36,873 nt of DNA from the NCBI GenBank assembly GCA_049586115.1, contig JBAVBF010000154.1, positions 1 to 36,873 on the forward strand. The letters are read 5' to 3'. This stretch comes from Thermoanaerobaculia bacterium (GTDB taxonomy: Bacteria; Acidobacteriota; Thermoanaerobaculia; Gp7-AA8). Position numbers and translations under genes: made by a program. Each line of letters starts with the position of its first letter. The stretch's first letter is position 1. Under the pieces are notes generated by a model. That model was not told the DNA's origin, did not search any database, and saw nothing but the letters and a program-made list of their open reading frames with translations. Positions 2,974-35,663 of the stretch are shown piece by piece.

Positions 2974-4638
2974 ATGGAGCAGCTCCAACTTCACTACGTC
3001 GATCTGGGCGTGCCGCGGGTCATGGACCTGAAGCATGAGCTGTCGGTGGGGCGCACCGAGGGGAATGACCTGATCCTCAACCATCCGTCGGTGTCGCGGA
3101 AGCATGCGCGGTTCGAGCTGCGCGGCGACAACTGGTGGATCGTCGATCTGAAATCGACGAACGGCGTGAAGTTGAACGGCAATCTCGTCACCGAGGCGCA
3201 GGTGGCGGCTGGGGATAAGTTGTCGGTCGGCTCCGTGCTGATGGACGCGCGGGCCATGCCGTCGGTCGATTTCAACGCCGACTCGATGTTCGACAACCCC
3301 TCGGGCACGGTCATCCGCCGCATCTCCGATTTCAATTCCGAGTTCGGGCTCGACCTCAACGAAGTCCTCGACAACAAAGCGCCGATCACGCGTCCGCCGT
3401 CGCAGCCGGGTTTTCGCGAGCCGGCTGTGTCGCGCGAGAAGATTTTCCAGGTCCTCGTGCAGGTGGCGAAAGCGCTGCTGGCGTCGGAAGAGCTGCAGGT
3501 CGTACTGACGACGGTGATGGACATCATCTTCCGCTACCTGCCGGTCGAGCGCGGTCTGATCATCCTCTTCGACGAAGAAGGCAATCCGGTTCCGAAGCTG
3601 ACCAAGTTCATCGACGGCGCCGAGCAACAGGACATCCCCATCTCGCGGACGATTTTGAAGATGGTCGCGCAGCAGCAGGTTGCGCTGATGACCTCGAACG
3701 CCCTCGAAGACGCGCGGCTGCTCGGCGGAAAGTCGATCGCCATTCACGGCATCCGCTCGGCGATGTGCGTGCCGCTGTGGAACCGGCAGCGCGTCATCGG
3801 CGCGGTGCAGGTCGATTCACCGATCCACATCGGCAGTTTCACGGAAGAGGATCTCGATCTGCTCACGGCGCTGGCAAACTTTGCGGCGGTTGCCATCGAA
3901 CGTGCGCAACTCGCGGAGAAGATCGAGGAAGAAAAGAAGATCCGCTCGCGCATGGAGCGCTACCACTCGCCCGCCGTCGTCGACGAAATCGTGAAGGGCT
4001 TGATCTCGACGGAATCGGAAGTGCGCAGCACCGACCTTTCGATCCTCTTCGCCGACATCAGCGGTTTTACGCCGATGTCGGAGTCGAAGAAGCCGGAGGA
4101 AGTGGCCGAGTTCCTGTCCCACTTCTTCTCGTGCGCGGTGGAATCGATCTTCGCGTACGGCGGCACGCTCGACAAATTCATCGGCGATGCGGTGATGGCC
4201 TTCTTCGGCGCGCCGCTGCCGCAGGACGATCACGCGGATCGCGCCGTGCTGACGGGACTAATGCTGCAGCGCATGGTGAACGAGTGGAACGTGGAGCGCG
4301 CAAAGACGAATCTGCCGCCGGTGATGGTGCGCGTAGGCATCAACAGCGGACTCGCAGTGGTCGGCAACGTCGGCACCGAGAAGCGCGTCGACTACACGGT
4401 CCTCGGATCGTCGGTCAACATCGCCTCGCGCCTCGAAAGCGGCGTAGCCAAACCGGGCCAGGTCGTGATCTCGCAGAACACGATGGACCGCATCATGGGC
4501 AGCTTCGAAACCGAATCGCTCGGCGAGTTCGCGTTGAAAGGTTTGCAACAGAAGATGCCGGTCTTCGCCGTGACCGGAACCGTCGGTGTCGGCGCCACTC
4601 CCGCGCCGGCGTTGCAGTCAACCTCGACGACGCGGTAA
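2974..4638 (+). CDS. FHA domain - GAF domain - class III adenylate/guanylate cyclase
   Basis: N-terminal FHA domain (LSVGRTEGNDLILNHPSVSRKHARFELRGDNWWIVDLKSTNGVKLNG). Central GAF-like region. C-terminal cyclase motifs (LSILFADISGFTPMSE, FIGDAVMAFFGAP, GINSGLAVVGNVG). Confidence 0.9.
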   Translation: MEQLQLHYVDLGVPRVMDLKHELSVGRTEGNDLILNHPSVSRKHARFELRGDNWWIVDLKSTNGVKLNGNLVTEAQVAAGDKLSVGSVLMDARAMPSVDFNADSMFDNPSGTVIRRISDFNSEFGLDLNEVLDNKAPITRPPSQPGFREPAVSREKIFQVLVQVAKALLASEELQVVLTTVMDIIFRYLPVERGLIILFDEEGNPVPKLTKFIDGAEQQDIPISRTILKMVAQQQVALMTSNALEDARLLGGKSIAIHGIRSAMCVPLWNRQRVIGAVQVDSPIHIGSFTEEDLDLLTALANFAAVAIERAQLAEKIEEEKKIRSRMERYHSPAVVDEIVKGLISTESEVRSTDLSILFADISGFTPMSESKKPEEVAEFLSHFFSCAVESIFAYGGTLDKFIGDAVMAFFGAPLPQDDHADRAVLTGLMLQRMVNEWNVERAKTNLPPVMVRVGINSGLAVVGNVGTEKRVDYTVLGSSVNIASRLESGVAKPGQVVISQNTMDRIMGSFETESLGEFALKGLQQKMPVFAVTGTVGVGATPAPALQSTSTTR

Positions 4639-4676
4639 ACCCGTATCCGCAGAGGTCCGCAGATTAAGATGACGGC

Positions 4677-5348
<672 letters not shown>

Positions 5349-5364
5349 ACTACGTCCAACGCCC

Positions 5365-7791
5365 ATGTTCGAAAAATACAACGAGAAAGCACGACGCGCT
5401 CTTTTCTTCGCCCGATATGAAGCTTCGAAGCTCGGCTCTCGCGTCATCGAGTCCGAACACATCCTCCTCGGCGTCCTGCGCGAGGGGGAGGAAATCATCA
5501 AAGAGATTTTCTCGCGTTTCAACGTGAAGCCCGAACAGATCCGTCGTGAAGTGGAAGGCGACCGGCTCTTCGTCGACCGCATCTCGTCGTCGGCGGAATT
5601 GCCGCTTTCCGAGGAGTCGAAAAAGATCCTCGCGTACGCTGCTCACGAAGCGGAGTCGATGCTGCATCAGTACGTCGGCACCGAGCACCTCCTGATCGGA
5701 ATCCTGCGCGTCGAGTCGTCCACGGCCGCACGCATCCTCACCTCCAAGGGCCTCAACGTCTACGGAGTGCGCGAGGAGACGATCTCGATTCTCAAAGAGC
5801 GCGAGGCCGACAAGCAGAAGAAAGAGCTGCCGTTCCTGGCCGAGTACGCGCGTGACCTCACGGCGATGGCGCACTCCGCGCAGTTCGATCCGCTCATCGG
5901 ACGCGAAAAAGAAGTCGAGCGCATCATCCAGATCCTTTCGCGGCGCACGAAGAACAATCCGATCCTTCTCGGCGAGCCCGGCGTCGGCAAGACCGCCATC
6001 GTCGAAGGGCTGGCTCAGCGCATCGTCGACGGCAACGTCCCGCTGTTCATCGCCAACAAACGCATCCTCTCGCTCGACCTCTCGCTCATCGTCGCCGGCA
6101 CCAAGTATCGCGGCCAGTTCGAGGAGCGGCTCAAAGGCATCATCAAAGAGCTGAAGGAAAACACCGACATCATCATCTTCATCGATGAGATCCACTCGCT
6201 CATCGGCGCCGGCCCGGCGGAAGGTTCGCTCGACGCCGCGAACATCCTCAAGCCGGCGTTGTCGCGCGGCGAGATCTCCTGCGTCGGCGCGACGACGATC
6301 CGAGAATATCGCCGCTACATCGAAAAGGACCGCTCGCTGCTGCGCCGCTTCCAGGCCATCAACGTCGCGCCGCCGAATGAGCTCGAGACGCTGCAGATCC
6401 TTGAAGGCGTCAAAGAGCGCTACGAGAACTTCCACAAGGTGAAGTACAGCGACACGGCCATTCGCAGCGCCGTCTATCAATCGAACCGCTACATCACCGA
6501 CCGCTTCTTTCCCGACAAAGCGATCGACATCATCGACGAGGCCGGCGCGAAGGTGAAGCTGCGCCGCGTGGCCGACACCCAGAACCTGCGGCGCCTGGAG
6601 TCGGAGATCCGCTCGATCGTCAAGGAGATGAAGAAGGCCATCTCCGACAAGGATTTCGAGAAAGCCGTCTTCCTGCGCGAGCGCGAAATCGAGTTGAAAG
6701 AAGAAGTCGAGCGCTTCAAGCAGGAGCGCGAGGCCGTCGGCGAAGAGCTGATGGAAGTGACCAAGAAGGACATCGAGGAGATCATCAGCTCCTGGACCGA
6801 CATCCCGGTCACCTCGATCGAAGCCGACGAAGCCGCGAAGCTCATCAACATGGAAGACTCGCTGATGCGGCGCGTGGTCGGTCAGGACAAAGCGATCCGC
6901 GCCATCTCGCGCGCCATCCGCCGTTCGCGCCTCGGCGTCGCCTCTCCGAATCGTCCGATGGGATCGTTCATCTTCCTCGGCTCGTCCGGCGTTGGTAAAA
7001 CGGAAGTAGCGCGGCGCCTGGCCGAGTTTCTCTTCGGATCGCAGCGCCACCTCATCCGCTTCGACATGTCCGAGTACATGGAGAAGCACGCGGTGTCGAA
7101 GCTCATCGGATCGCCTCCCGGCTACGTCGGCCACGAAGAAGGCGGACAACTCACCGAGCGCGTTCGCCGCAATCCGTACTCGGTCGTGCTGCTCGACGAG
7201 ATCGAGAAGGCGCATCCCGACATCGCCAACATCCTGCTGCAGATTCTCGAAGACGGCATTCTCACCGACTCGCTCGGCAACCAGGTCGACTTCCGCAACA
7301 CGCTGATCATCATGACCAGCAACCTCGGCACGCGCTTCCTGACCACGAAGGGCCACATGGGCTTCCGCGAGAAGTCGAGCGAGGCCGATCAGAAGTCCGC
7401 CGAGGCGATGATCCATCAGGAGCTGAAGAAAGAGTTCAGCCCCGAGTTCATCAATCGGATCGACGACATCATCATCTTCAATCCGCTGACGCAAAACGAG
7501 CTCCGCGCGATCTGCCGGCTGCTGGTCGACGACGTCAACATCGCGCTCGTCCAGAAGGGCGTCCAGATCGCCATCGACGACTCCGTCATCGACTGGCTGC
7601 TCTCGCGCGCTGAGGAAGAGTCGAACTCGGGAGCGCGTCCGCTGCGGCGAGCGATCCAGCGTTACATCGAAGACGAGTTGTCGGAGTTCCTCATCCGCCA
7701 CAAGGAGTCGATGCCGGAATGGATCGACTTCACGATGAATGCGAACGAAGTGCTGCTGATGCCGAGGAGCAGCGAGGCGTTGACGCCGTAG
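5365..7791 (+). CDS. clpC: ATP-dependent Clp protease ATP-binding subunit ClpC
   Basis: 808 aa. Clp_N repeats ([30 protein letters not shown]). Two AAA+ modules (GEPGVGKTA and GSSGVGKTE). UVR-like middle motif ([15 protein letters not shown]). Confidence 0.92.
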
Positions 7792-7800: not shown

Positions 7801-7914
7801 GTGGCCCCGCCACGCATCTATCTCGAAACGAGCCTGATCAGCTATGTAGTTGGTCGACGAAGCCGCGATCTGATTACGCTCGCGAATCAGGAGCTCACTC
7901 GTGAGTGGTGGGAC
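7801..7914 (+). pseudogene. 5' remnant (~38 codons) of a PIN-like (VapC-type) gene
   Basis: The GTG-start frame reads VAPPRIYLETSLISYVVGRRSRDLITLANQELTREWWD. From memory, this matches the N-terminus of a PIN-like family (xVYVETSIxSxxxxRxSxDxxxxxxxxxTxxWWD ... WNCxHxAN). After WWD the frame degenerates into Arg/Ser-rich nonsense. Confidence 0.45.
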
Positions 7915-8807
7915 GTTCGAGGCCTCGCTTGCTGCACACGAGACGGCGCCGGCGATCCTGCTCGTCGGCCCAGGGATGCGGCAAGACGACGCTCGCACGT
8001 GGTCTCGCCGAGCACTACAAGGGGAAGTTCAAGACGATCGTCGCCGCGAAAGATGTCACGCCGGTCATCCTCTGCGGATGGCTCGCGGGGATCGAGTACG
8101 GCGACACGCTTTTTATCGATGAGGTGCACGGCCTCCCCGGCGGTACGCAGGAGCTGCTCTATCCGGTGCTCGATCAGCTGAAGCGACCGGTCATCAAGGA
8201 CAGAAAGCTCGATCGCAGCGAGCGCGCAAGCGTTGCTCCCTTCAATTTTCTTTGCGCTACGACGGAGCCAGGCCAGTTGCTCGCACCGTTCCGTTCGCGC
8301 ATGGAGATCATTTTTTTCGATCCGAATTCGCGGTCCGAGTTGCGCGCCATCGCGATCAATGCCGCCGCTGAGGCCGGACGGAAACTTTCGCCCCAAGGCG
8401 GGGGCGAACTCGCGGATCGGTGCCAGGAAAGCCCCCGGCTCTTGACAAAGATGGTGCAGCAGCTCGTCCGCCTTACACCGAGCATTTCCGAGCTGACGCA
8501 GGATCACGTTCGAAGCTTTCTTCGGAAGAAGGGGATCAGCTCCCACGGCCTCGATCCGCTCCAGCAGCAGTACCTCCTCGCGCTCTCGCGGTTACCCGGA
8601 CATCGGTCCATGTTCGAGCGGCTGGTGTCTCACCTTCAGATCGCCGACGCCGGATTCTTCCGGCAGGAAGCCGAATCGTTCCTCGTCGCGACGGGTGCCA
8701 TCGTCATCGAGGCGCGCTACCGGCTGCTGACCAAGCGTGGACAGGAAGTCGTGGAGCAGCTGAAGGCGGAATTCGGCATCGAGGACGAGGAGGACGCCGA
8801 TGTTTGA
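7905..8807 (+). CDS. divergent RuvB-like AAA+ ATPase; apparent frameshift at the P-loop, with N-terminal codons in another frame from 7901
   Basis: GCGKTTLARGLAEHY...DTLFIDEVHGLPGGTQELLYPVLDQ...FNFLCATTEPGQLLAPFRSRMEI...GLDPLQQQYLLAL parallels RuvB (GKTTLA, LFIDEIHRL, LYPAMED, ATTR..L..PLRDRF, and the winged-helix GLD..D..YL region). The +2 frame from 7901 reads SGGTFEASLAAHETAPAILLVGPG and abuts GCGKTT. Confidence 0.7.
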   Translation: MVGRSRPRLLHTRRRRRSCSSAQGCGKTTLARGLAEHYKGKFKTIVAAKDVTPVILCGWLAGIEYGDTLFIDEVHGLPGGTQELLYPVLDQLKRPVIKDRKLDRSERASVAPFNFLCATTEPGQLLAPFRSRMEIIFFDPNSRSELRAIAINAAAEAGRKLSPQGGGELADRCQESPRLLTKMVQQLVRLTPSISELTQDHVRSFLRKKGISSHGLDPLQQQYLLALSRLPGHRSMFERLVSHLQIADAGFFRQEAESFLVATGAIVIEARYRLLTKRGQEVVEQLKAEFGIEDEEDADV

Positions 8808-9825
8808 GGTCATCGTCGGTCCTGAACTCGAAGAATTCTGCACCTGGGCGTACCGCGCCAACATGCCGGTTCTTCTGAATGGCAATCACGGTGTCGGCAA
8901 GAGTGAGTCGCTGCGAGCCGTCGCGGAGAAGCTCGGGATCGGGTTCATCACACTGAACCTCTCTGCGCTTGAAGCCGTGGACCTGCAGGGGATGCCCGTC
9001 GTCGTCGGCGACCGAGTGGAATACGTAGCCCCGCTCTGGTTCCCGACGACGGGCAATGGCCTGCTCTTTCTCGATGAAGTGAGCCGCGCCCCGCGCCATC
9101 TTCGCGCACCGCTCTTTCAGCTGCTCACGGAGCGGGGGATCAATGGCCGCCAGCTCGGGGCCGGCTGGGTTCCCGTCGCCGCCGCGAATGACGGCGCAGC
9201 CTATGACGTCGATGATCTGGACCCCGCATTCACGAGCCGTTTCATCTCCGTTCGGGTGAGGTCGTCGGTCTACCAGTGGCTGGACTGGGCTCGTGGTGCA
9301 GGCGTTCATGAGCGCGTGCTTGATTTCGCCGTCATCCATCCGGACCTCTTCGATGATCCCGCATCGAATCCTCGCGCCTGGGAGGGGGTGAGCAAATTGC
9401 TCCACGCAGGGGAAGACGGACAGCTCGCCCCTTCACGGGGTACGGTACTCCCGACCCTCCTCCAGAAAATGATCGCCGGTCTCGTCGGCGAAACCTGGAG
9501 CGCCGCCTTCTGGCAGCACTACATCGGCGCTGCGCGGCCCATCAATCCGACATCGATCATCACGCAGTACGCCGCGGAGCGGCCGACCGTTGCGCAGTGG
9601 ATCGCCCAAAAGCGCGTGGATCTCCTCCATCAGACGATGAAGATGCTGCAGGGGTTGCTGCAGTCGCAGGCCGTCCACGACGAGGTCGTTGCCCACGACG
9701 TGCAACGCTTGAACGTCATCGCTTTCGCCGGCGACCTTCCGGCCGAGCTCCGCAGGAAGTGGTCGGCGTGGGTCGTCGATCGGGAATTCCCGAGGCTCGC
9801 GATCTCGAAAAAGAGGCGGTCATGA
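8800..9825 (+). CDS. AAA_5 / MoxR-like ATPase
   Basis: Walker A LLNGNHGVGKSE, Walker B LLFLDEVSRAP, then LFQLLTER...VAAAN, typical of MoxR/CbbQ-type ATPases. 8-nt overlap with the upstream gene and ATGA overlap with the downstream gene. Confidence 0.8.
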   Translation: MFEVIVGPELEEFCTWAYRANMPVLLNGNHGVGKSESLRAVAEKLGIGFITLNLSALEAVDLQGMPVVVGDRVEYVAPLWFPTTGNGLLFLDEVSRAPRHLRAPLFQLLTERGINGRQLGAGWVPVAAANDGAAYDVDDLDPAFTSRFISVRVRSSVYQWLDWARGAGVHERVLDFAVIHPDLFDDPASNPRAWEGVSKLLHAGEDGQLAPSRGTVLPTLLQKMIAGLVGETWSAAFWQHYIGAARPINPTSIITQYAAERPTVAQWIAQKRVDLLHQTMKMLQGLLQSQAVHDEVVAHDVQRLNVIAFAGDLPAELRRKWSAWVVDREFPRLAISKKRRS

Positions 9826-11081
9826 TCGATCTCGCCGCGGCCGCCGGCAAGATGCACATCACCACGCAACGCATGGTGGCGAAGCATCCGTTTCACGCGA
9901 ACCTCGTGGCCACCGGCGTCTTTGTTCCCGAACCGGTCAGAACGATGGCGGTCACCGTTCGCGACGGCCTGCTCACCTTTCTCTATGATCCGGCCTTCGT
10001 CCTCGCGACCGAGTTGGATGTCCTCATCGGATCGCTTCTCCACGAAACCGGGCACGTGCTCGCGGATCATCTCACCGCAAATCCGGCGAACTATCCGGAT
10101 CGTCGCGCACGCACCATTGCCGAAGAAGTGACAGTGAACGAGTGGATCATCGAACCGCTGCCGCCCGGCGTCCTGCGTATCGACCAGTTCGGGCTCGTGC
10201 CCGATGAGGACACCGACACCCGATATGAGCGCCTGCGGGACCCGAAATCGGGATCGGTACCGAATTCGGGCCGGCGCGTACCGAAAAAGGGGACGCGCGG
10301 GAACAAAAAGACGGGCCGCGGTCGCGATTCCACACCGCCGATCGAAACCTTTGATGATCACTCGTTCTGGGATGCGACGCGGAACGATCCGATTCGGACC
10401 CGTCAGGTTATCGACCAGGTGGTGGTCGCTGCGGCCGACCGGCTCGGCCCGGATGAGGGACGTTCGATGTCCAAGGGAGAGCATCAGCGCGTGCGGGACG
10501 CGCGCGGACGCATACCGCGATGCGCCGCGAGTGACGAGATCGACGGCGGCGTCGGCCGCGTGCGCTGGCAGCCGATCCTCGAGCGTCTTGTCGGCCGGCG
10601 GCGTGAGGCTGTGGCCAACTTCCGGCGGCCGTCGCGCCGCTTTCCGTCGTTCGTCGGCATCGTCCCGGCCTTCTTCCATCGGACCGCGCGGCTCCGAGTA
10701 TGCGCCGTCGTCGATACGAGCGGGTCGATGGACGCGCGTACCCTAGCCGTTATCAATGGCGAGCTCGCCGTGCTTGCCCGGCTGCATGACGTGACGGTCG
10801 TGCAGTGCGACGACCGTGTCCGCTCCGTCGCACCCTTCACCGGGCAGATCGCGCGGATCATCGGGCGGGGCAACACGGATTTCCGGCCACCGCTGGAACG
10901 GGTCTTCCTCGCCGATCAGGGCGCCGAGGTCGTCGTCTACTTCTGCGACGGCCAGGGTCCTGCGCCAGTGCGGGCGCCGCGCGTTCCGGTCATTTGGGCG
11001 ATCACCGCCGCCGGCCGGCGGCCGGCCGCGTGGGGCCACATGATCAGTCTTCCGGCGGCGTCTGCAGCGCGTGCCAGCTAA
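9822..11081 (+). CDS. putative HExxH metallopeptidase domain + VWA-like domain protein (DUF2201/COG3864-type partner of MoxR ATPases)
   Basis: HExxH motif in SLLHETGHVLADHL. C-terminal MIDAS-type VCAVVDTSGSMD ... VVQCDDRV ... GRGNTDFRPPL ... VVYFCDGQG. The start is taken at ATG 9822 (ATGA overlap) rather than the track's 9597, which overlaps the upstream gene. Confidence 0.8.
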   Translation: MIDLAAAAGKMHITTQRMVAKHPFHANLVATGVFVPEPVRTMAVTVRDGLLTFLYDPAFVLATELDVLIGSLLHETGHVLADHLTANPANYPDRRARTIAEEVTVNEWIIEPLPPGVLRIDQFGLVPDEDTDTRYERLRDPKSGSVPNSGRRVPKKGTRGNKKTGRGRDSTPPIETFDDHSFWDATRNDPIRTRQVIDQVVVAAADRLGPDEGRSMSKGEHQRVRDARGRIPRCAASDEIDGGVGRVRWQPILERLVGRRREAVANFRRPSRRFPSFVGIVPAFFHRTARLRVCAVVDTSGSMDARTLAVINGELAVLARLHDVTVVQCDDRVRSVAPFTGQIARIIGRGNTDFRPPLERVFLADQGAEVVVYFCDGQGPAPVRAPRVPVIWAITAAGRRPAAWGHMISLPAASAARAS

Positions 11082-12301
11082 TCGAAACTGTCATCGAGTT
11101 GCTGCCGTGCCGCGCTCGATCCCGGCAGGAAGTGCGCGTAGTAGTTGGCCGTCGTGTAGACGCTTCCGTGACCGAGGAGCTTCGACACGTACGTGATCTC
11201 CAGCCCCCGCTGGAGAAGATGCGAGGCAAACAAGTGACGGAGCGAATGCGGGGTGCAGCGGGGCACGTCTGCCCGTGCCACGGCGGGATCCCAGTGGCGC
11301 TGCTGAAAGTTCCGGTCGTTCATCGGGCGACCGGCGGCATCCTCGGACTTTGCGGGAAACACCCACGGGTCATGCCGGTGTACGTCGCCGCGTTCTTGCG
11401 CTGCGCGATAGTCGCGGAGCTGCGAGACGAGCGCGCGGGGCATGTCGACCAAACGGACCGCAGACGTCTTCGTCGTGACGATGCGCCCGGTCACCTGATC
11501 GATCGACTGCTGGATGCGCACCTTCTTCCGCACGAGATCAACGCACGACCACTCGAGCGCGAGCGCTTCATTCAGTCGCGCACCGCTTTGGCGCAGAAAC
11601 TCCGCGACCATGTGGGCGATCGGGTGATGCACTTCCGCGATGATCTTCTTCGCGTGCTCCAACTCCGGAACGACGACCGGAACACGATTCCGCTTCGGTA
11701 ACCGGACGAGGGCCGCCGGATTCGCGGACGCGAGGCCGCGCAGCATAGCCTCCTCGAGGACTTGTCGAAGAAGGAGCAGGCACTCGCGTCGGGTCTGGCC
11801 GGCGATCCCGTCGTTCTCAAGAAGTTCGGTGCGGAGTGCCATGCAGCTCTCGTAGGCGAGATCCGAAACGCGCACGTCGCCGAGGAGCGGTCGTATATGA
11901 CAGTTGAATCGTGATTGCGCGGCGCGGGCCGTCGAGTCCTTCAACCCATTGCCCCGCATGATGTCGGGGACGTACACCTCGTCGAAGAACGCGCCGAGCT
12001 CGATCTTCTGATTCGCGCGCGCCACGAGCTTGATGCCACGCTTGCCTGAACGAATGAGGTCGGAACGGACGTCACGCGCCTCCGTCAGTGTCTCGGCCAT
12101 GCGGAACACTTGTTCTCCTCGTCGATACACGAAGACGCCATAGCGTCCGGAGCGCGGATACTTCCAGATTCCACGCTCCACGCGTACGGGCTTCTCGTCC
12201 GGCGCGCCGACGAGTCGCAGAGGAACGCGCTTCGAAACCGGTGTCGATGCCATGGAGAGAGCGTAGGCACGACGCGCCAGAATCCACACGCCGTGGCTCA
12301 A
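11078..12301 (-). CDS. tyrosine recombinase / phage-type integrase
   Basis: C-terminal catalytic region TPHSLRHLFASHLLQRGLEITYVSKLLGHGSVYTTANYYAHF (R...HxxR...Y). Its stop codon overlaps the stop of the convergent VWA gene. Confidence 0.9.
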   Translation of the reverse strand: MSHGVWILARRAYALSMASTPVSKRVPLRLVGAPDEKPVRVERGIWKYPRSGRYGVFVYRRGEQVFRMAETLTEARDVRSDLIRSGKRGIKLVARANQKIELGAFFDEVYVPDIMRGNGLKDSTARAAQSRFNCHIRPLLGDVRVSDLAYESCMALRTELLENDGIAGQTRRECLLLLRQVLEEAMLRGLASANPAALVRLPKRNRVPVVVPELEHAKKIIAEVHHPIAHMVAEFLRQSGARLNEALALEWSCVDLVRKKVRIQQSIDQVTGRIVTTKTSAVRLVDMPRALVSQLRDYRAAQERGDVHRHDPWVFPAKSEDAAGRPMNDRNFQQRHWDPAVARADVPRCTPHSLRHLFASHLLQRGLEITYVSKLLGHGSVYTTANYYAHFLPGSSAARQQLDDSFD

Positions 12302-12372: not shown

Positions 12373-12730
12373 CTAATGCCACGCGTTCTTCAGGTGAAGC
12401 TGCATCCACCGTCCGTAGACCCGTCGAATCCGCGCGAACTCACGGCGAACGATCGGAGCACTCAGCGTCGCAGCGTCGGCATTCGCTGCGTTCAAGTAAA
12501 TCTTCTGGATGCTCCTGGTCAGCTCATACTTTCTCTTAGGCGGAGGCGCGCGGAGGTTCTGCTGCCTCTCGATGGCTCTTCGATTTGCGGTGGTGCGGAC
12601 GTGAGCTCGGACGCCACGTCGTTCACCTTCTGCTGCGCAATCTCTTCCGTCAGTCCGCGCTCATCGATCTCCGGATGCCCGTCGATCGTCCCATGCCAAA
12701 TCCCCCCACCTTCTCGACGCGTATGCTCAT
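12373..12730 (-). pseudogene. small gene just upstream of the integrase (repeat copy 1), disrupted by a 1-nt deletion; coding signal changes frame
   Basis: From ATG 12730 the frame reads MSIRVEKVGG, then a G6 run where copy 2 has GGGCGGG, which causes a stop after 26 codons. After correcting the frame it parallels the copy-2 protein. The 3' part reads ...PPPKRKYELTRSIQKIYLNAANADAATLSAPIVRREFARIRRVYGRWMQLHLKNAWH in a third frame and ends at 12373. Confidence 0.35.
12465..12730. repeat. diverged direct repeat, copy 1 (pairs with 13876-14142)
   Basis: Collinear alignment by eye with copy 2 is roughly four-fifths identical over ~266 nt with a single 1-nt indel. Confidence 0.8.
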
Positions 12731-12876
12731 CCCGAAAGGCTGCGCGGCAGTGTGCAGCTTTAACGGCAGGTCAACCGCACAGCGATAATGTAACCGTGGA
12801 AACGGCGCAGGTCACCTCATCCTACGTTCATGTTCAACGGTCTCTCGATCTTATCGGGCGATCGTACGGTGGTCTC

Positions 12877-13830
12877 ATGGTGCCGCCGGATGAGTCGATT
12901 CAAAAGGGCTTCTTTTTTCATCGAATCACGGATGCTGTTGTGCAGTGGCTAATCGCCGCTCAGACACCCACGCTCGGTGCATTGCTTGCGAAGGATGAAG
13001 TCGCAGTCGGAACCATTTTTTGCCACACTGGTTTGTTCTTTTGTCGTGGCATGTCGGCATACCTTCAAGGAAAGAGGAAGGCTTTGCCAGATGTCTACGC
13101 AAAGCTAGAGGATTTCTCTCCCGGACTGACGCTCATCGCGACTGCGAATCCAGACCATCTGACGAGTGTCTCGGCCTCGGACCATCTTGCGGGCCAACGA
13201 CGGCTGTTCTTCGCCGGCGTCATCAGCGGTGTTTCCAATCGGGAGATTGAGGCGAGGCCGATCATCATAGGCATGGTCGTACAGGGCTCGTGCTCGGATG
13301 CAGTGGATCTTGGGTTCCCTGCTGCATATTCGAACGGAGAACTCTACGTGTCGCAAATTGACGCCTTCTCCGCCCTCGCAGACGTGTCGCCGCCCTCGCT
13401 CGAGAAGGTAGGGCGACTTAAAGAAGTTCCCGAAGAATCCGTCAAGAATGCCTTCGCTGAAATCATCGGCGAGCCTTTTGTCCCTAAAGATTGGGGAGGC
13501 GAGATGTCGGATTTGGTCTCAACGAACGTCTCAGTGGATGGAAGGCGAATGTCGTCTGCATTTGCTTTCAAGGGTCCAGCAAAGTTCCATCCGCTCACGG
13601 TCGCCGACATGGGAAAAAACGGCGATCAAATTTTTCGACTCTTTAATGAGCCCGCTGAGCTCGTGGTTGTCCAGCACTGCCATCAGATCACATCACCTGT
13701 TCGCGCTCACATGCGCGCTTTCGCTCAGTGGCCAGGTCGGGCGCGAATGTTCTGCCTGATAAATGGTAGCGACACGGTCAAAATTTTGAGCGCGTACGGG
13801 AAGCTCGGGTTCGGACACCAAGCCAGCTAG
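12877..13830 (+). CDS. hypothetical protein, lower-GC cargo gene; the C-terminal region looks restriction-endonuclease-like (unverified)
   Basis: Start taken at ATG 12877, because the track ORF from 12088 overlaps the integrase and repeat copy 1. C-terminal block: PKDWGGEMSDLVSTNVSVDGRRMSSAFAFKGPAKFHPLTVADMGKNGDQIFRLFNEPAELVVVQHCHQI. Visibly more AT-rich than its neighbours. Confidence 0.55.
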   Translation: MVPPDESIQKGFFFHRITDAVVQWLIAAQTPTLGALLAKDEVAVGTIFCHTGLFFCRGMSAYLQGKRKALPDVYAKLEDFSPGLTLIATANPDHLTSVSASDHLAGQRRLFFAGVISGVSNREIEARPIIIGMVVQGSCSDAVDLGFPAAYSNGELYVSQIDAFSALADVSPPSLEKVGRLKEVPEESVKNAFAEIIGEPFVPKDWGGEMSDLVSTNVSVDGRRMSSAFAFKGPAKFHPLTVADMGKNGDQIFRLFNEPAELVVVQHCHQITSPVRAHMRAFAQWPGRARMFCLINGSDTVKILSAYGKLGFGHQAS

Positions 13831-13875
13831 CTCGCCGCAGAAGTTGGCCCCGCCTTCAAAGTCAAAACTATCATG

Positions 13876-14142
13876 GCATCGCAGCGTCGGCATTCACTGC
13901 GTTCAAGTGAGTTTTTCGGATCTGCCTGGTCAGCTCATCCTTCTTTTTCGGCGCAGTCCCGCGGAGGTTCCAATGCCCTCTTGATGGTTCTCCGATTTCG
14001 GCGGTGCGGACGTGTGCCTGAACGCCACGTCGTTCACCTTCCGCCGCGCAATCTCTTCCGTCAGGCTGCGCTCATCGATCTCCGGATGCTCGTAGATCGT
14101 CCCATGCCAAATCCCGCCCACCTTCTCCACGCGTATGTTCAT
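13876..14142. repeat. diverged direct repeat, copy 2 (pairs with 12465-12730)
   Basis: See copy 1. Homology stops abruptly at 13876, about 45 nt after the end of the low-GC ORF. Confidence 0.8.
13930..14142 (-). CDS. small hypothetical protein (70 aa), intact-frame paralogue of the copy-1 gene
   Basis: MNIRVEKVGGIWHGTIYEHPEIDERSLTEEIARRKVNDVAF... The first ~40 aa are conserved with frame-corrected copy 1. No clear Shine-Dalgarno sequence. Confidence 0.4.
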   Translation of the reverse strand: MNIRVEKVGGIWHGTIYEHPEIDERSLTEEIARRKVNDVAFRHTSAPPKSENHQEGIGTSAGLRRKRRMS

Positions 14143-14233
14143 GGTGGGAGGTTACGACGCAACGCCGTGTTCTACACGGTGTGACCTTTCGTTGAGGAGT
14201 CGACGGCGATCATGAGGTCGCGTTCTACCTTGT

Positions 14234-14695
14234 GTGTCGCCGGACGCATCGCCGGAGCGTCCACGACGCGTGGACAAATTTCGCGTGTTGCTAGCCTCGC
14301 TCCGTGGACAACGAAGAGAACAGTCGTTCCCGTGGCAGCTTCTTTCTTCCGGCCGGAACGGCGGCGGGCACCGCGCTCATCGTGCGGCCGACCGAGGCAC
14401 TCACCCCCGCAGAACCGATCCTCGAGCGGAGATCATCGAGGAGGAGACGCTTCCTGATCTCTATGACGCATCGGTCCGGCGCTCGACGCGCCTCGAAGCC
14501 TTCCTAAAGGGCCACGGGATCAAGCCCGCGCATCTTGCCCGGGAATGCGGCTACTCGCGCCAGCACCTCCTCCGCATCCGGCTCGGGTGCATGGAACCGA
14601 CGCGTCGTTGCATGGCGGCCATCGTCGTGGCATGTCGCCGTCTCACCCGCAGGCGCGTGCGGGCCTCCGCGCTGTTCGACTTGGGGGACACCTAA
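14234..14695 (+). CDS. XRE/Cro-like helix-turn-helix protein; start uncertain, only the C-terminal ~80 aa look genuine
   Basis: STRLEAFLKGHGIKPAHLARECGYSRQHLLRIRLGCMEPTRRCMAAIVVACRRL is HTH-like. The N-terminal half is Arg/Pro-rich and may not be translated. Confidence 0.55.
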   Translation: MSPDASPERPRRVDKFRVLLASLRGQRREQSFPWQLLSSGRNGGGHRAHRAADRGTHPRRTDPRAEIIEEETLPDLYDASVRRSTRLEAFLKGHGIKPAHLARECGYSRQHLLRIRLGCMEPTRRCMAAIVVACRRLTRRRVRASALFDLGDT

Positions 14696-14697
14696 CG

Positions 14698-14943
14698 ATG
14701 CAGTGGCCGAAGAACACCGTTTGCACGTGCGGAGACGGGAGGGCACGCGGAGACGGGAGGGCACGACACTGGTTCGCGACGAGCAGCCCGAACGGCCCAT
14801 GCCGCGAGTGCGGATGCACAGCGTTCGTCCTCGCGCCGGCGTCCGAATGCGGCCACGGCAAGGCGGCGCACGCAAAGGGCTTCTGCAATCAGAGGTACAT
14901 CGACGGATGCCGGGCCTTCCGCGAGCGGGGGACAGTCTCGTGA
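14698..14943 (+). CDS. small Cys/His-rich (zinc-ribbon-like) protein, 81 aa
   Basis: MQWPKNTVCTCGDGRARGDGRARHWFATSSPNGPCRECGCTAFVLAPASECGHGKAAHAKGFCNQRYIDGC. Starts 2 nt after the upstream TAA. Its TGA overlaps the next ATG. Contains a perfect 18-bp tandem duplication. Confidence 0.5.
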   Translation: MQWPKNTVCTCGDGRARGDGRARHWFATSSPNGPCRECGCTAFVLAPASECGHGKAAHAKGFCNQRYIDGCRAFRERGTVS

Positions 14944-15976: not shown

Positions 15977-16416
15977 ACGACTTCGATTGGCCTCCCGTCC
16001 CGTATGCCGACTACCTCCAGAAGGAACTGGATCGACAAACGCAGTTCGCGTATCTCAATCCGGAATTGGATCGGCGCTACGACCCGGTGGTGGTCGGCGG
16101 CACAGCGATGTCCCCCGTCATTCAGTCGGGCGATGTCGTCCTTGTGGACACCGGGAACACGCGCCTGGAGGATGGCCGCGTCGTCGCGGTTCGGGTCACG
16201 GGTGGAAGAACCCTCATCGGCTACTGGCATCGGCGGGACGGTAGTCCCGTGCTCCAACAAGAACGAACCGACGCAGTGATCGACCTCGCGCAATGTCTGA
16301 ACTGGTCGATCTACGGCATCATTACGAAGGTCATTGGGCGAGACGTTCAGCCTCGTCCCGCATCACCGGATGTAGCATTAGAAGCGGAGGACGTACGAAT
16401 GGATGTCACGCCATGA
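15973..16416 (+). CDS. second S24/LexA-fold peptidase-like protein (GTG start), catalytic Ser position apparently Ala
   Basis: VVGGTAMSPVIQSGDVVLVDTGNTRLEDGRVVAVRVTGGRTLIGYWHRRDGSPVLQQE...IYGIITKVIGR matches the S24 pattern (xGDSMxPxIxxGDxVLVD...DGxxVxxxxxGxxxxKR). GGAGGAG lies 2 nt upstream of the GTG start. GTGA overlap with the upstream gene. Confidence 0.6.
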   Translation: MNDFDWPPVPYADYLQKELDRQTQFAYLNPELDRRYDPVVVGGTAMSPVIQSGDVVLVDTGNTRLEDGRVVAVRVTGGRTLIGYWHRRDGSPVLQQERTDAVIDLAQCLNWSIYGIITKVIGRDVQPRPASPDVALEAEDVRMDVTP

Positions 16417-16473
16417 CAGGCGCAGTGGGTCATAGAACGGCTTCTTGCAGACCGTCGTATCTCTGCAAGGGAC

Positions 16474-16806
16474 GTGAACCAGTATCTCGCAGGCATGCAG
16501 GGGGAGATCCGGGATATCGAACAACGCCTTTCCGACCTTCGTGGGGCCGCCGGACCCCCCGCGGTGGTCGCACCTTCTGTCCGTACAGCGGTCGCGCCAG
16601 CGAAGACGCGGAAGCGGCGCGCCGGCGGAAAGAAAGGTCATCCGCGCGGTGTCGCGGGAACGCTCGCCGTCCTCCTCCGCTCGATCCCGGCCGCAGAACA
16701 CGCCGCCATTGCTGCCATCCGTGCCGACAAAGGCATCAAGGCCGCGATTAGCGCTGCGAGGGCTGCGTCAAAAGGTAGAAGCGGTCGACGAAAGGCGCGG
16801 CCGTGA
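16474..16806 (+). CDS. hypothetical basic, Ala-rich protein with an N-terminal coiled-coil-like segment
   Basis: VNQYLAGMQGEIRDIEQRLSDLRG...KTRKRRAGGKKGHPRG...AEHAAIAAIRADKGIKAAISAARAA. Same reading frame as the upstream gene, separated from it by one TGA codon. Confidence 0.45.
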   Translation: MNQYLAGMQGEIRDIEQRLSDLRGAAGPPAVVAPSVRTAVAPAKTRKRRAGGKKGHPRGVAGTLAVLLRSIPAAEHAAIAAIRADKGIKAAISAARAASKGRSGRRKARP

Positions 16807-17242
16807 AGAGTCAGTTCAGTACTTCGGGATCTCTCTGGCTTGCGGGTAGGAATTGGGCTCCAGAATCACTCCTACATATGAGTCCTTCCCGGCGAAAGAG
16901 AAGAGGTCTGGAACGAGCGTTCTGTTATTGCTACTCTGGCCCATCATGTCTAGCGCGGCTACGCGTGTGGTCGTACCCTTCGCTAGCGCGAAATTAAGGA
17001 CCGCATCTAAGCCACCACGATCGCGCTGAAGAACGCGAACCGCATCCTGGTTTTCTTGGAACAGCGAAACGGTGAGGTAGTGATTCCCTGAAGATTAAGT
17101 CAAGACGTGGTCTGCTGACGAATAGGAAAGTGAGCGCGTGAAGTTCGATTGGTTGCGGGGGCGGGGACCTTTCGGTTTGTGGGTCCCACGAGCGAACCTG
17201 CGGAGCCTCAGGCCGGTCCTCGATGTGGTGTGGCGCCGTGTC

Positions 17243-18439
17243 TCAGAGAGTCTTTCGCAACTCGTCGGGGTCAGTGGCGCGGGTAAGCGCCTCGTCACGT
17301 GAAATCAGTCCAGCGCTTACGAGATCACGGAGCGAATCGTCGAAGCTTAGCATTCCCTGACGTCTTCCGAGGGTGATCTCATTGTGGAGTCCTTCCAGCT
17401 TTCCGAGGCGGATCTGGTGTCGAACCGCGATGTTTGCGAGCAAGAGCTCAGCAGCGGGGACGACGCCACGGCCGTCAGCGCGGGGAATGAGCTTCTGATG
17501 CAAGACGGCGTTGAGGCTCAGCGCGATCTGTTTGTAGATTTGCGTCTGTTGGTTCGATGGATACACGTCCACGATACGGTTGATCGACTGCGCCGGACTA
17601 CTCGTGTGCAGCGTTGAAAAGATGAGATGCCCGGTCTCCGCGGCCGTCAGTGCAATCGATATGGTCTCCAAGTCACGCATCTCTCCCACGAGTATGACGT
17701 CCGGGTCCTGCCTCAGCGCGGAACGGAGAGCTCCCGCGAATGTCGCGGCGTCTTTGCCGATCTCGATCTGCTCGACCAGCGACTTGCTGTTCCTGTGTTC
17801 GTATTCGAGAGGATCTTCGATCGTGATGATGTGCTTCGCATGGGTCCTGTTGATCTCACCAACCAGCGCAGCGAGTGTTGTGCTCTTGCCGGAGCCGGTC
17901 GGGCCGCACACCAGAACCAAACCACGGGATGGTTTTGTCAGTTCTGCCAGGGAAGGTGGAAGATTCAGTTGCGCTAGCGTGGGAATGTGTACCGGCAGCC
18001 GACGAATCGAGGCAGCAGTATGCCCGCGCTCCTGGTGCACATTGATCCGGAAGCGGAATCCCCCCGTTTCGCTGCTGACCGCGGCGACGGCAAAGTCGAC
18101 CGCACCGCGCTGCTTGAGCTCCTCGTACATTCGTGCAGGAACCATGGCTCGCAATTCTTCATTCGTCAGGACAGTCTCGGTGGCGAAACGGATATCTCCA
18201 TTGATACGAAACGCGGCCGGTACGCCGGTGACCAGATGGAGGTCGGTCGCGTTGTGATCGACCATCTGTCGCAGCAGTGTTTCGAGCCTGGCTCGGGAGT
18301 CAATCTTGAGATCGGAAGACGATACGAAAGGTTCGGCAATCGGTGCGTCGTCTCTCTCAAACGGCTGGGCCTCGGACTCGACGCGGTTCAAGTCACGAAC
18401 AAGGCGGCTCAGGTCGGGGTCGGGAACGAACGAAGGCAT
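17243..18439 (-). CDS. pilT: type IV pilus retraction ATPase PilT (PilT/PilU family)
   Basis: Walker A GPTGSGKST, ITIEDPLEY, Asp box DPDVILVGEMRD, His box TGHLIFSTLHT. Has a ~50-aa N-terminal extension. No other pil genes in the window. Confidence 0.9.
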   Translation of the reverse strand: MPSFVPDPDLSRLVRDLNRVESEAQPFERDDAPIAEPFVSSSDLKIDSRARLETLLRQMVDHNATDLHLVTGVPAAFRINGDIRFATETVLTNEELRAMVPARMYEELKQRGAVDFAVAAVSSETGGFRFRINVHQERGHTAASIRRLPVHIPTLAQLNLPPSLAELTKPSRGLVLVCGPTGSGKSTTLAALVGEINRTHAKHIITIEDPLEYEHRNSKSLVEQIEIGKDAATFAGALRSALRQDPDVILVGEMRDLETISIALTAAETGHLIFSTLHTSSPAQSINRIVDVYPSNQQTQIYKQIALSLNAVLHQKLIPRADGRGVVPAAELLLANIAVRHQIRLGKLEGLHNEITLGRRQGMLSFDDSLRDLVSAGLISRDEALTRATDPDELRKTL

Positions 18440-18628
18440 GGTGAAAAATCTCCTCCTTGAGATCGCATCTCTTGCCGCATATTAATCTTCTGGACCCGTG
18501 TCGATCGAAAACCCGATCCGTGATTTCTGATCCCTGAGAGCCCTGCGGCGCGCTAACCGCGCAGAGATTGAACAGCAAGGGGGGGGACTCAGATTGCGAT
18601 GACAAAATGTCAAGAGAGAAGAACAACG

Positions 18629-18657
18629 TTGACATTGACCTAAGCCACAACTAGCAT
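18629..18657 (+). promoter_or_regulatory. sigma70-like promoter for lanA: TTGACA, 17-nt spacer, TAGCAT
   Basis: TTGACA at 18629-18634, a 17-nt spacer, then TAGCAT at 18652-18657, about 65 nt upstream of ATG 18722. A 7-bp inverted repeat (atgtcaa, 14-nt spacer, ttgacat) overlaps the -35 box. AGGGAG Shine-Dalgarno sequence at 18714-18719. Confidence 0.4.
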
Positions 18658-18721
18658 CGCGTCACTAATCCCCCACACGTCCGCACCCCGTCTCGAAAAT
18701 TGAATCGTTAGAGAGGGAGCT

Positions 18722-19060
18722 ATGAAAAAGAACCGCAAGATTGTGCGTGCATGGACTGATCCCGCTTTTCGTGCCAACCTGAGCGCTGAAGACCGCGCGA
18801 AGATACCGGCGAATCCTGCTGGAGATGATCTCGATCGCGATCTCGAGAATGTAGTCGGCGGTTTTACGTTCGGCGATGGCTGTGGTACGTCCGGATGTAC
18901 GGTTTTCATTTGCACCGATCCGTGCGGCACTTACGGTGCGAGTTGCAATACCAATGTAACCACCTGCCCGAAGACGACGAGGGTGGGCGATCCCGACTGC
19001 GGCGGCGGCGCCCTCAGCGCTGATGCGGGAATGTGTCACCCGATTGAAAATCCACAGTAA
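18722..19060 (+). CDS. lanA: class II lanthipeptide precursor (mersacidin/lichenicidin-type leader, double-glycine cleavage site), 47-aa leader + 65-aa core
   Basis: The leader MKKNRKIVRAWTDPAFRANLSAEDRAKIPANPAGDDLDRDLENVVGG matches the xIRAWKDPxxRxxLSxxExxxLPxxPAG...GG pattern. The core FTFGDGCGTSGCTVFICTDPCGTYGASCNTNVTTCPKTTRVGDPDCGGGALSADAGMCHPIENPQ has 8 Cys and 13 Ser/Thr. Confidence 0.85.
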   Translation: MKKNRKIVRAWTDPAFRANLSAEDRAKIPANPAGDDLDRDLENVVGGFTFGDGCGTSGCTVFICTDPCGTYGASCNTNVTTCPKTTRVGDPDCGGGALSADAGMCHPIENPQ

Positions 19061-19071
19061 TTCACCATTTC

Positions 19072-19122
19072 TGAGCGGGTAGGGTCGCCGGCGTGGAAGC
19101 GCCGGCAAGCTCATTGTTTTTT
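19072..19122 (+). terminator. putative intrinsic terminator after lanA
   Basis: Inner stem gccggcg (19087-19093) pairs with cgccggc (19100-19106). Outer stem tgagc (19072-19076) pairs with gctca (19109-19113). Followed by ttgTTTTTT (19117-19122). Confidence 0.4.
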
Positions 19123-19303
19123 AGATGAGCAGCGCGATAGCCGCTGGGCTTGCCCCTGCAATGAATAGGGGTGCTTCAGCGCGGCGGCTGCTCGAGGCGA
19201 CATCCTTACTTGGCCGGCTCCGGGAGCCACCGCGAAGCTCAAGCAGCGGAGGTTCGCAGAAGTGAGTCTCTCCTGGAATCCGCGCGGGCTTGTCCCCGCA
19301 TAG

Positions 19304-22300: not shown

Positions 22301-22483
22301 TGCAGCCCCGGAAGGTAATTGCAGGCGGACGAATTCATCGGCTTTCACTATTGCGCCGTCCGGCGGTAGCAGCTTCCGTTTTCGCACGATGGCCACGCGT
22401 TCGGCGAGGTCCAGAGCGGCCCATCGAAAGGCTTTGGGAATGGCGAGGGTACGAACCCGTCGCCTCACGGCCGGGTGACTCAC
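19304..22483 (-). CDS. lanM: class II lanthipeptide synthetase LanM (dehydratase + LanC-like cyclase), 1059 aa from GTG 22483
   Basis: DUF4135-type region (LGGTDFHSENLIAFGEFPVMIDLEALFH). C-terminal LanC-like motifs WCHGGPGIALG and CLCHGELGNIE. The track ORF extends to 22876 but overlaps the upstream permease gene. GTG 22483 overlaps that gene's TAG by 1 nt and gives a typical LanM length. Confidence 0.92.
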   Translation of the reverse strand: MSHPAVRRRVRTLAIPKAFRWAALDLAERVAIVRKRKLLPPDGAIVKADEFVRLQLPSGAAVTLDAWLDASRCSYEELATALQTPSEQILSGEEPAEWQGLLAEILSVRSLEQAARETTGSGTYGDLLQPFISWGVVRAEETLAAIGDLAADRAKVVDSARVILQRRLIDYSSRAITLELHVRKLLGDISGETGRERFRSFANLLCERPRLWQNFFYRYPVLARLLATYSAHWLRNLETTLRSFQQSRSEIVSTIFRTIDPGLLVRIDGSLGDRHAGGREVLRFHFENGAKLMYKPRELTADALFLASADRLNRQGFEPRLKCVSVVVDGDHGWTEFIEHRTVNDEQAIRQFYRRQGAYLALLWILGGTDFHSENLIAFGEFPVMIDLEALFHRRLKILDHYRSVGQWVLDRSVMNTGLLPGWSLADANRDGVDISGLGGREGQFYPHDVEIWEGGDVDDSRLVRRKVAVPVRSNRPSLGTDSIDLVRYEEDLVQGFRDAASVIIQHRDEWSEQIEAFSACEVREVIRPTFIYLKLANAGLHPDYLRDALSQESLFARACNIIRHVPAMRTVVASEMRDLRAGDVPRFASRPGSRVLLHAREGEFENFFEDTAIEECSERLRSFDEGEVLRQARIIRGSLAILLRDDIGAARNLREVPYDEREMIAAAAQIGDDLIALAVHSSDEIEWLGLEERSRGQTHFVPTGRDLYSGSSGVGLFFIYLFEITRDQRYADCAKTIADHVGMGLESMPINGGFSGLGSAIYFLHHYAALIGEPSPVSRFVDCLVTQAESIANDNILDIIAGSAGLLLIALNLYNTTDDDRALTIAQAMGEHIVTRQAANERGGAAWRTIPADAPLTGFAHGAAGISYALRRLAQATGNNDFDRAALAGIDYERAVYIPTMGNWPDFRTPTAAMASAPNSIRAAFAWCHGGPGIALGRLKAQQHPDQATLAEVDVVLSQLRDKPIMPQDCLCHGELGNIETLIVAAEKLERPELLDHARRRAQAILATTKGGAWRLRARAELMPGLMTGLAGVGFGFLRVSRPKQVPSVLALDGPPMN

Positions 22484-24845: not shown

Positions 24846-24874
24846 ATGGTGTGTCTTCGACGGGCCGAGGGGCG

Positions 24875-27534: not shown

Positions 27535-27623
27535 GAGAATTGGAGCTTAGATCCCCTCAGTTGATGATCAGTTTACGATGGATATTCTCATCTGTGGCCA
27601 TCTGCTCGGATCCGCCGCGACGG

Positions 27624-28190: not shown

Positions 28191-28262
28191 GAAATCTTGT
28201 TCAGGCGCATTAGCTCTGCGTTCCCCGCCGCAGTTGCCACACGTCCTTACCGTTGATGAGAG

Positions 28263-29182: not shown

Positions 29183-29211
29183 TTGCTCGTCCGAAAGGCG
29201 CAGTTTATTAT
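29183..29211 (+). promoter_or_regulatory. possible sigma70-like promoter giving a near-leaderless PhyH/NRPS transcript: TTGCTC, 17-nt spacer, TATTAT
   Basis: TTGCTC at 29183-29188, a 17-nt spacer, then TATTAT at 29206-29211. The ATG at 29222 is only 10 nt after the -10 box and there is no Shine-Dalgarno sequence. Confidence 0.3.
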
Positions 29212-29221
29212 ACGTCTTTCC

Positions 29222-35606: not shown

Positions 35607-35663
35607 ATTGACTGCATTTTGGTGTCATTATCTTCGCTTCCAATAATCAACATAGAAGGCAAC

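Follow-up and report, generated by a model that had tools for sequence, protein, structure and literature searches.

MoxR-type AAA+ ATPases and their VWA-domain partners are known as chaperone or adaptor machines for a few enzymes and as the cores of predicted conflict systems. A survey of jumbo phages described a pair made of a MoxR ATPase and a metallopeptidase-vWA protein and proposed a role for it in virion assembly (PMC7824862), and MoxR-vWA ternary conflict systems of the VMAP, iSTAND, FtsH and beta-propeller types were described by Kaur, Burroughs, Iyer and Aravind (2020; PMC7159879). No publication was found on an operon that combines a RuvB-like ATPase, a MoxR ATPase and a peptidase-VWA protein. 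Such a trio lies in the stretch of 36,873 nt analyzed here (the window), from contig JBAVBF010000154.1 of a Thermoanaerobaculia bacterium (assembly GCA_049586115.1), where a RuvB-like AAA+ ATPase (gene 1), a MoxR-type ATPase (gene 2) and a protein joining an HExxH peptidase domain to a VWA domain (gene 3) adjoin a tyrosine integrase. The cassette is a conserved, mobile unit with a recognizable anatomy, and it has decayed in the window. We give a probability of about 0.5 to the overall reading, in which this region is the decayed copy of a horizontally mobile RuvB-like/MoxR/peptidase-VWA cassette whose intact form would be a DNA-linked, ATP-driven proteolytic module for the element that carries it.

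The coordinates of the open reading frames (ORFs) and the junction sequences confirmed that the three plus-strand genes overlap, as an earlier sequence-only reading of this DNA had stated, with gene 1 and gene 2 sharing the 8 nt ATGTTTGA and gene 2 and gene 3 sharing the 4 nt ATGA. The integrase, described in the same reading as convergent with the operon and abutting it, proved to be so placed: the stop codon of gene 3 (TAA, 11079-11081) overlaps the stop of the minus-strand integrase (11078-11080). The domain calls (RuvB-type, AAA_5/MoxR-type, HExxH peptidase plus MIDAS VWA) also agreed with the Pfam matches and the invariant motifs. Gene 1, called as an ORF at 7905-8807 on the plus strand, matched RuvB_N (1.4e-14), AAA and, weakly, RuvB_C, and it scored 108.5 bits with the NCBIfam RuvB model NF000868 (cut-off 282) and 95.9 bits with TIGR00635 (cut-off 299). 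Gene 2 matched Pfam AAA_5 (7.6e-7) and phrog_1297, annotated "ATPase" (2.8e-45), its matches in the PDB were NorQ (2e-6) and also midasin AAA modules, and it was 75% identical over its full length to the orthologue in the related locus L004. Gene 3 matched DUF2201_N (8e-7), DUF2201 (1.8e-15) and phrog_1314 (6.9e-29), a family mislabelled HNH endonuclease, and both its HExxH motif (H74, E75, H78) and its MIDAS DxSxS motif (D298, S300, S302) were invariant in 19 relatives. Gene 3 had no sequence match in the PDB. Its AlphaFold model (predicted local distance difference test, pLDDT, 80.4) has a helical N-terminal half that bears the HExxH motif and a Rossmann-like C-terminal half, and a fold search matched the latter to VWA folds, weakly including NorD of the NorQD complex. 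For the peptidase half, the fold search returned no structural neighbor and no tie to SprT/Wss1-like or ImmA-like peptidases; an analogy between gene 3 and a DNA-protein-crosslink protease is pure speculation.

A profile scan with gene 3, using one genome per species, yielded 323 relatives, and the best 80 of these loci were kept and annotated with our own hidden Markov models for genes 1-3, the integrase and g0, a small gene that precedes the trio in close relatives. Genes 1, 2 and 3 were adjacent and co-directional in 27 cellular loci (the window and 26 others) from Acidobacteriota, Planctomycetota, Myxococcota, Verrucomicrobiota, Lentisphaerota and Pseudomonadota, which upholds the view of the trio as a unit kept in other genomes too. 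One further trio was found on the virus-like contig L088, the only one of 80 viral loci with a RuvB-like partner. Every contig with a close relative of gene 1 showed the same gene 1-2-3 order with overlapping ends. Of the 80 genome loci, 78 had the MoxR-like gene next to the DUF2201_N/DUF2201 gene, as did most viral loci; those relatives of gene 3 that are more distant, chiefly from Myxococcota, had only a longer gene 2 with gene 3 and no trio. The 28 trio rows of the gene 3 tree all grouped in one clade of 40 (support 87), outside which fell a separate pair-only clade of 43 rows and the viral outgroup. Since the same subclades appear in the trees of gene 1 and of gene 3 (L035 with L058; L018, L019 and L031; L022 with L025; L009 with L010; L015 with L034; and L016 with the clade of the window), the genes travel together, with transfer across phyla. 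In a Gemmataceae locus (L071), the same kind of RuvB-like gene is positioned after gene 3.

An intact relative of gene 1 (321 amino acids) aligned with a solved RuvB in the PDB over residues 11-299 (E 7e-27), the best stretches across chains spanning residues 7-299. In the gene 1 tree, the canonical RuvBs grouped together with 100% support on a long stem (2.18); this clade includes the RuvB of the same genome (27% identical), and all trio-linked copies fell outside it. The alignment revealed Walker A (GxxGxGK[TS]), Walker B (hhhDE) and sensor 1 in nearly all trio copies, and likewise the arginine finger in xSR[MLF], sensor 2 (PR) and a basic RxR/GR motif in the winged-helix head. In RuvB structures, basic residues of the head domain contact DNA. 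Given that the AAA+ motifs and the RxR/GR motif of the head are both conserved, the trio RuvB-like proteins are predicted to be active ATPases with a DNA-binding head. No ruvA-like or ruvC-like neighbor was seen in any of the 27 trio loci, and the housekeeping RuvB is encoded on a separate contig (C503).

The copy of gene 1 in the window departs from this pattern. Its closest relatives (70-90% identity) all have 321 amino acids and start with MARPPFSKYGLIGQ...LLVGPQGCGKT. DNA alignment with three intact loci showed that homology begins only at about position 7913, so that codons 1 to about 24 are missing, and that the Walker A codons have lost 2 nt, at about 7966-7973 (GGCC--CAGGG within GPQGCGKT). 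Ahead of the remnant, and fused to it at about 7910-7914, stand the first ~38 codons of the PIN-domain gene that follows clpC. In another genome of the same genus, the DNA past clpC runs into a full-length protein of ~155 amino acids (VPLRIYLETSLISYLVGRPSRDLITLANQEITREWWD...; L174:1137-1628, minus strand; Pfam PIN 3.7e-6), and the homology of the window to this genome extends through 7914, ending in the PIN stub. These alignments indicate that a deletion joined codon ~38 of the PIN gene to codon ~25 of gene 1 and removed the upstream partner gene g0, which tblastn did not find anywhere in the whole window. Gene 1 in the window is hence predicted to be a truncated, frameshifted pseudogene whose missing N-terminus is in all probability the deletion junction and no trait of the family. 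The GTG at 7901/7905 is not a true start, because the 114 nt at 7801-7914 are the 5' stub of the PIN-domain gene. The sequence-only reading had taken gene 1 for a diverged but whole RuvB lacking the usual N-terminus, which the length of the relatives, the PIN fusion and the 2-nt deletion contradict. Programmed frameshifting in gene 1 was considered and rejected, as the relatives read straight through. The ratio of nonsynonymous to synonymous substitution rates (dN/dS) relative to the closest locus (L168) was 0.158, 0.152 and 0.171 for genes 1, 2 and 3, respectively; since the values of 0.15-0.17 in all three genes place most of the divergence under selection, the inactivation was recent. The trio cannot act here as a trio, and at most the MoxR/VWA-peptidase pair survives.

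Decay was also observed in other trios: all three genes are in pieces in a Planctomycetaceae locus beside an IS4 transposase (L039:6921-10277), and gene 2 is split in two in L012 (2515-3579). In L005, an ORF of 77 amino acids between g0 and gene 1 (5968-6201) is ~40% identical over 43 residues to the N-terminus of the RuvB-like protein and is apparently the remnant of a partial duplication.

The trio lies on strain-specific or mobile DNA, which supports the mobile island of the sequence-only reading: gene 3 was present in 0 of 15 other genomes of the same genus and in 2 of 100 other genomes of the same family, both with the full trio. The integrase-linked block recurs in unrelated genomes and is missing from the 15 other same-genus genomes searched. 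Within the clade of the window, DNA homology starts at g0 and runs through the end of gene 3, the integrase forms a second block found in either orientation, and the flanks differ. In close relatives, g0 is coupled upstream of the trio and encodes a protein of 135-158 amino acids (CPICxF...HRRFYNY...TWASLTN). The integrase of the window is 84% identical to that of L004, and an orthologous integrase stood beside gene 3 wherever a locus of the clade extends beyond that gene (L004, L005, L007, L008, L168 and L183), the contig of L006 ending at gene 3. It is convergent with gene 3 in the window, L005 and L168 and co-directional with it in L004, L007, L008 and L183, and a small ORF past the integrase holds its position whichever way the integrase points. 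Inverted repeats around the integrase were sought as the cause of this flipping, and no convincing pair was found in five loci.

The whole region to the right of clpC (7792-36873) had no close DNA counterpart in five same-genus genomes, in which clpC itself was 86-96% identical, and nothing from positions 17000-36873 recurred in these five. No clean empty site was found in the same-genus genomes, the DNA past clpC being different in each. The left end of the cassette was destroyed by the deletion, and what the two ~285-nt repeats to the right of the integrase enclose is a different gene and not the cassette. The window showed no phage structural genes.

Table 1. Coordinates of features in the window and in related loci, with neighbors of individual trio loci.
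Locus	Feature	Position	Strand	Basis
Window	ClpC-type gene (clpC), upstream of the trio	5365-7791		
Window	5' stub of PIN-domain gene, ~38 codons; left junction of cassette remnant	7801..7914	+	DNA homology to same-genus genome G012
Window	Gene 1, RuvB-like AAA+ ATPase, predicted pseudogene	7913..8807	+	Alignment to intact relatives L168, L008, L007
Window	Gene 2, MoxR-type (AAA_5) ATPase, intact, 341 aa	8800..9825	+	
Window	Gene 3, zincin-type HExxH peptidase domain (DUF2201_N) and MIDAS VWA domain (DUF2201), intact, 419 aa	9822..11081	+	
Window	Tyrosine integrase, convergent with gene 3	11078..12301	-	Phage_integrase 3.8e-24
Window	~285-nt direct repeat, first copy, with small minus-strand ORF	12465..12749		Repeat search, tblastn, blastn
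Window	~285-nt direct repeat, second copy; intact small ORF 13930-14142 (-)	13876..14161		Repeat search, tblastn, blastn
Window	Homologue of ~128-aa protein	16399..16734	+	tblastn, 70% identity to L004:16877-17263
L004	Orthologous integrase	13538-14713		
L005	Orthologous integrase	9481-10653		
L008	Orthologous integrase	10405-11583		
L168	Orthologous integrase	3632-4654		
L010	Integrase neighbor			
L014	Serine recombinase and methylase neighbors			
L015, L024, L034	Integrase neighbors			
L017	D5_N/DUF5906 primase-helicase neighbor; ParB-like protein upstream			ParB-like protein by eye
L018, L019	IS1595 neighbors			
L022	SNF2-NOV_C protein (helicase-nuclease) and C5 methylase neighbors			
L025, L058	Ser/Thr kinase neighbors			
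L039	IS4 neighbor, fragmented trio			

The two repeat copies are 79-89% identical to each other, and their small ORF is kept just past the integrase in related loci, as detected by tblastn with the 61-aa ORF of L004 and by blastn to L004, L005 and L008. The ~128-aa protein, whose protein cluster spans the same three loci, is encoded downstream of the integrase in each of them, and the homologue in the window is probably part of the island backbone shared with them. Pfam gave no match for g0, for divergent proteins of ~600 amino acids or for the small ORF of the repeats. A protein of ~390-410 amino acids (MADK.AY.GREQTLVKHIILRQY...), which we take to resemble the TcmP partner family, is shared by L005 (181-1410), L007 (181-1344) and L008 (2571-3959), where it is encoded 4-5 kb ahead of the cassette with different intervening genes, and it may mark a larger shared island backbone. 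On the 150-kb contig of L004, a second, truncated DUF2201-type gene (4724-5590, minus strand; 36-38% identical to gene 3) lies ~4.5 kb upstream of the intact cassette, near a gene with a RelA_SpoT domain and one for a very large protein in which Pfam finds Tc-toxin-type domains; this second copy suggests that such cassettes have reached one island more than once. The part of the window to the right of clpC also holds a LanM lanthipeptide synthetase, a C39-ABC exporter, MacB/HlyD genes and an array of nonribosomal peptide synthetase-like and PhyH genes.

Across phyla, no gene beyond the trio was conserved. A census of three genes on each side in 22 loci outside the clade of the window (117 genes) revealed Phage_integrase as the commonest Pfam family (4), and also resolvases/recombinases, IS1595, DNA methylases, ResIII/helicases and protein kinases. 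Inspection by eye of the genes upstream of the trio in other phyla suggested assorted small DNA-binding proteins of ribbon-helix-helix-, XRE-, AlpA- and sigma-like types, and no analogue of g0 was found in those loci. The trio on the virus-like contig L088 is flanked by a large helicase (phrog_62) on one side and by a primase (phrog_47) and a DnaB-like helicase (phrog_19) on the other. In a Planctomycetaceae locus (L009:1086-6724), proteins of 1518 and 360 amino acids with no Pfam match are encoded directly upstream of the trio, the C-terminus of the smaller one bearing by eye a Toprim-like (JetD-type) resemblance.

Searches for described relatives showed that gene 2 matches 591 phage records by tblastn (N4-like, rV5-like and jumbo phages). 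In tblastn searches of annotated phages, gene 3 gave one weak match, and the matches of the intact gene 1 relative were confined to RuvB-like genes from phage or contaminated records. In the N4-like Klebsiella phage KpCHEMY26, the MoxR/peptidase-VWA pair (gp35/gp36) lies in the early/DNA-metabolism region, among RNA polymerase subunits, a dUTPase and an annotated replication initiation protein. Within 2 kb after this pair (L185, 8842-11328) come a further AAA+ protein, which carries the annotation Clp ATP-binding subunit, and a metalloprotease of the FtsH type, and extra ATPase or protease partners near the pair may be a recurring theme. The best matches in PADLOC-DB 2.0 were RtcR_PspF1 for gene 1 (5.4e-5) and PDC-S01 for gene 2 (2.8e-4), both generic AAA models, with nothing for gene 3 or the integrase; no defense family in that database fits the trio, in agreement with the earlier remark that it is not a recognized named system.

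Taken as a working model, the intact cassette would combine a hexameric AAA+ motor of the RuvB family, which has the three RuvB domains and unbroken ATPase motifs and belongs to a lineage apart from the housekeeping RuvB, with a MoxR-type AAA+ remodelling ATPase and a VWA/MIDAS adaptor fused to a zinc (HExxH) peptidase. In its Thermoanaerobaculia form, the trio is translationally coupled to the small Cys-motif protein g0 and always followed by the tyrosine integrase. By analogy with NorQ/NorD-type pairs, the MoxR ATPase and the VWA adaptor would capture a target protein and remodel it for cleavage by the fused peptidase, and the RuvB-like ring would tie this proteolysis to DNA. The module may thereby serve its carrier mobile element by processing replication or recombination complexes after excision, which we judge slightly more likely than host defense.

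A role in the life cycle of the element is proposed tentatively, at somewhat less than even odds, and three observations point to it: what is conserved next to the integrase is the trio and not a variable cargo slot, the trio adjoins replication genes in L017 and L088, and the related pair is a standing pair of phages. Several observations weigh against it. No recognizable replication initiator or relaxase was present among the conserved neighbors of the Thermoanaerobaculia element, so that this role is reached only by elimination; L017 and L088 are the only two trio loci that adjoin replication genes; the restriction-modification-type neighbors in L014 and L022 fit defense cargo equally well; and the patchy distribution, the long branches and the frequent broken copies (the window, L012 and L039) suit both a life-cycle and a defense role. 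Defense cargo against phages or plasmids, in which the RuvB-like motor would sense foreign DNA and the MoxR/VWA proteins would gate the peptidase as effector, appears a rather unlikely explanation of the trio. It would account for the horizontally transferred, patchy distribution in the genus and family and for the cross-phylum clades, for the fast-evolving branches and for the methylases, the SNF2-NOV_C helicase-nuclease and the Ser/Thr kinases among the neighbors, and the three-part architecture parallels that of the ternary conflict systems (PMC7159879); but none of the three proteins has a PADLOC family with a meaningful E-value, and the PADLOC tallies on the 117 neighbors were mostly of generic kinase and methylase models, with few known defense genes. 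The homologous pair is moreover a standing feature of strictly lytic phages, and the trio itself forms the conserved core next to the integrase and does not occupy a variable cargo slot. The defense role suggested by the sequence-only reading consequently received no direct support, the neighbors being mainly integrases, recombinases, transposases and primase-helicases, with a few methylases and a helicase-nuclease. The opposite setting that it had named, in replication or morphogenesis modules, was found in part: it holds for the helicase-primase/DnaB genes of L088, the D5-type primase-helicase of L017 and the lytic-phage pair, and it covers only part of the trio loci. Doubtful, and to be entertained with still more reserve, is a wider proposal in which the RuvB-family ring would load on a DNA structure of a replicating or recombining foreign or element genome and license the zinc peptidase via the MoxR/VWA proteins, making the trio an unrecognized class of conflict system (defense or counter-defense) in at least six phyla.

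Two further explanations were both judged improbable. One regards the trio as a cellular chaperone or maturation system of the NorQ/NorD or CbbQ/CbbO kind, in which the RuvB-like protein would be a second ring, as in BchI/BchD, with no link to DNA or mobile elements. The resemblance of gene 2 to NorQ and the NorD match of the gene 3 VWA fold are compatible with it, as is the conserved, divergently oriented gene of ~400-470 codons, chromosomal-looking and by eye a sugar-binding regulator, that adjoins some pair-only Pirellulaceae relatives; against this, no conserved gene for a substrate enzyme accompanies the trio in any phylum, mobile-element genes dominate the neighbors, the winged-helix head of RuvB, basic motif included, is retained in the gene 1 family, and the invariant peptidase active site would be needless in a pure chaperone. 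The other, equally hard to credit, concerns the window copy alone and ascribes the defects of gene 1 to assembly artefacts of a fragmented metagenome-assembled genome, so that the window would really carry an intact, functional cassette. The genome is indeed a draft of 842 contigs with 86.5% completeness, and dN/dS is as low in gene 1 as in genes 2 and 3; two independent lesions coincide, however (the PIN-stub junction and the 2-nt deletion), the microhomology at the junction is only a few bases, far under the word size of an assembler, the PIN stub sits exactly where a same-genus genome has the full gene, and g0 is missing from the whole window.

If the reading as a DNA-linked proteolytic module is true, a RuvB-family motor and a zinc peptidase would couple DNA sensing or translocation to targeted proteolysis, which has not yet been shown in bacteria. 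As the cassette, though rare, is self-contained, only ~3.3 kb long and conserved in six phyla, it can be tested directly by cloning. The copy in the window is chiefly a pointer to it, a relic that testifies to the rapid gain and loss of the cassette.

Compared with canonical RuvB, the trio RuvB-like proteins have the same three-domain architecture (RuvB_N ATPase, lid and winged-helix head) and the same AAA+ motifs, the window copy being truncated, whereas they are only about 27-33% identical to it, score below the NCBIfam equivalog cut-off and lie outside the canonical clade. The presensor-1 beta-hairpin is the RuvA-binding hairpin of RuvB, and the segment that matches it has a different, charged sequence in the trio RuvB-like proteins. 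With NorQ/NorD, CbbQ/CbbO and RavA/ViaA, the trio has in common a MoxR AAA+ ATPase and an adjacent MIDAS VWA adaptor; it differs from them in having no client enzyme gene, a peptidase on the adaptor, an extra RuvB-like ATPase and a mobile-element setting. The ternary systems (PMC7159879) likewise join a MoxR ATPase to a vWA co-chaperone and to a third part that confers specificity or acts as a sensor; occasionally a peptidase is fused to their vWA protein, and they are frequent in Myxococcota and Planctomycetota. The third component of the trio is instead a RuvB-family ATPase, and RuvB has 0 occurrences in that paper; VMAP, iSTAND and effector-array domains were not found among the trio neighbors, and the trypsin and caspase domains fused to vWA in the ternary systems are mostly inactive, whereas the zincin of gene 3 is predicted to be active. 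The phage pair of PHROG 1297 and PHROG 1314 (N4-like, rV5-like and group 2.2 jumbo phages; PMC7824862) shares with the trio the adjacency and order of the two genes, the fusion of HExxH and MIDAS domains and the wider gene 3 family. It differs in having no RuvB-like partner and in the outgroup position of its gene 3 members, and the trio is found in cellular genomes beside integrases and transposases, with only L088 in the viral collection. The trio is thus the known MoxR-vWA pair with a new third component.

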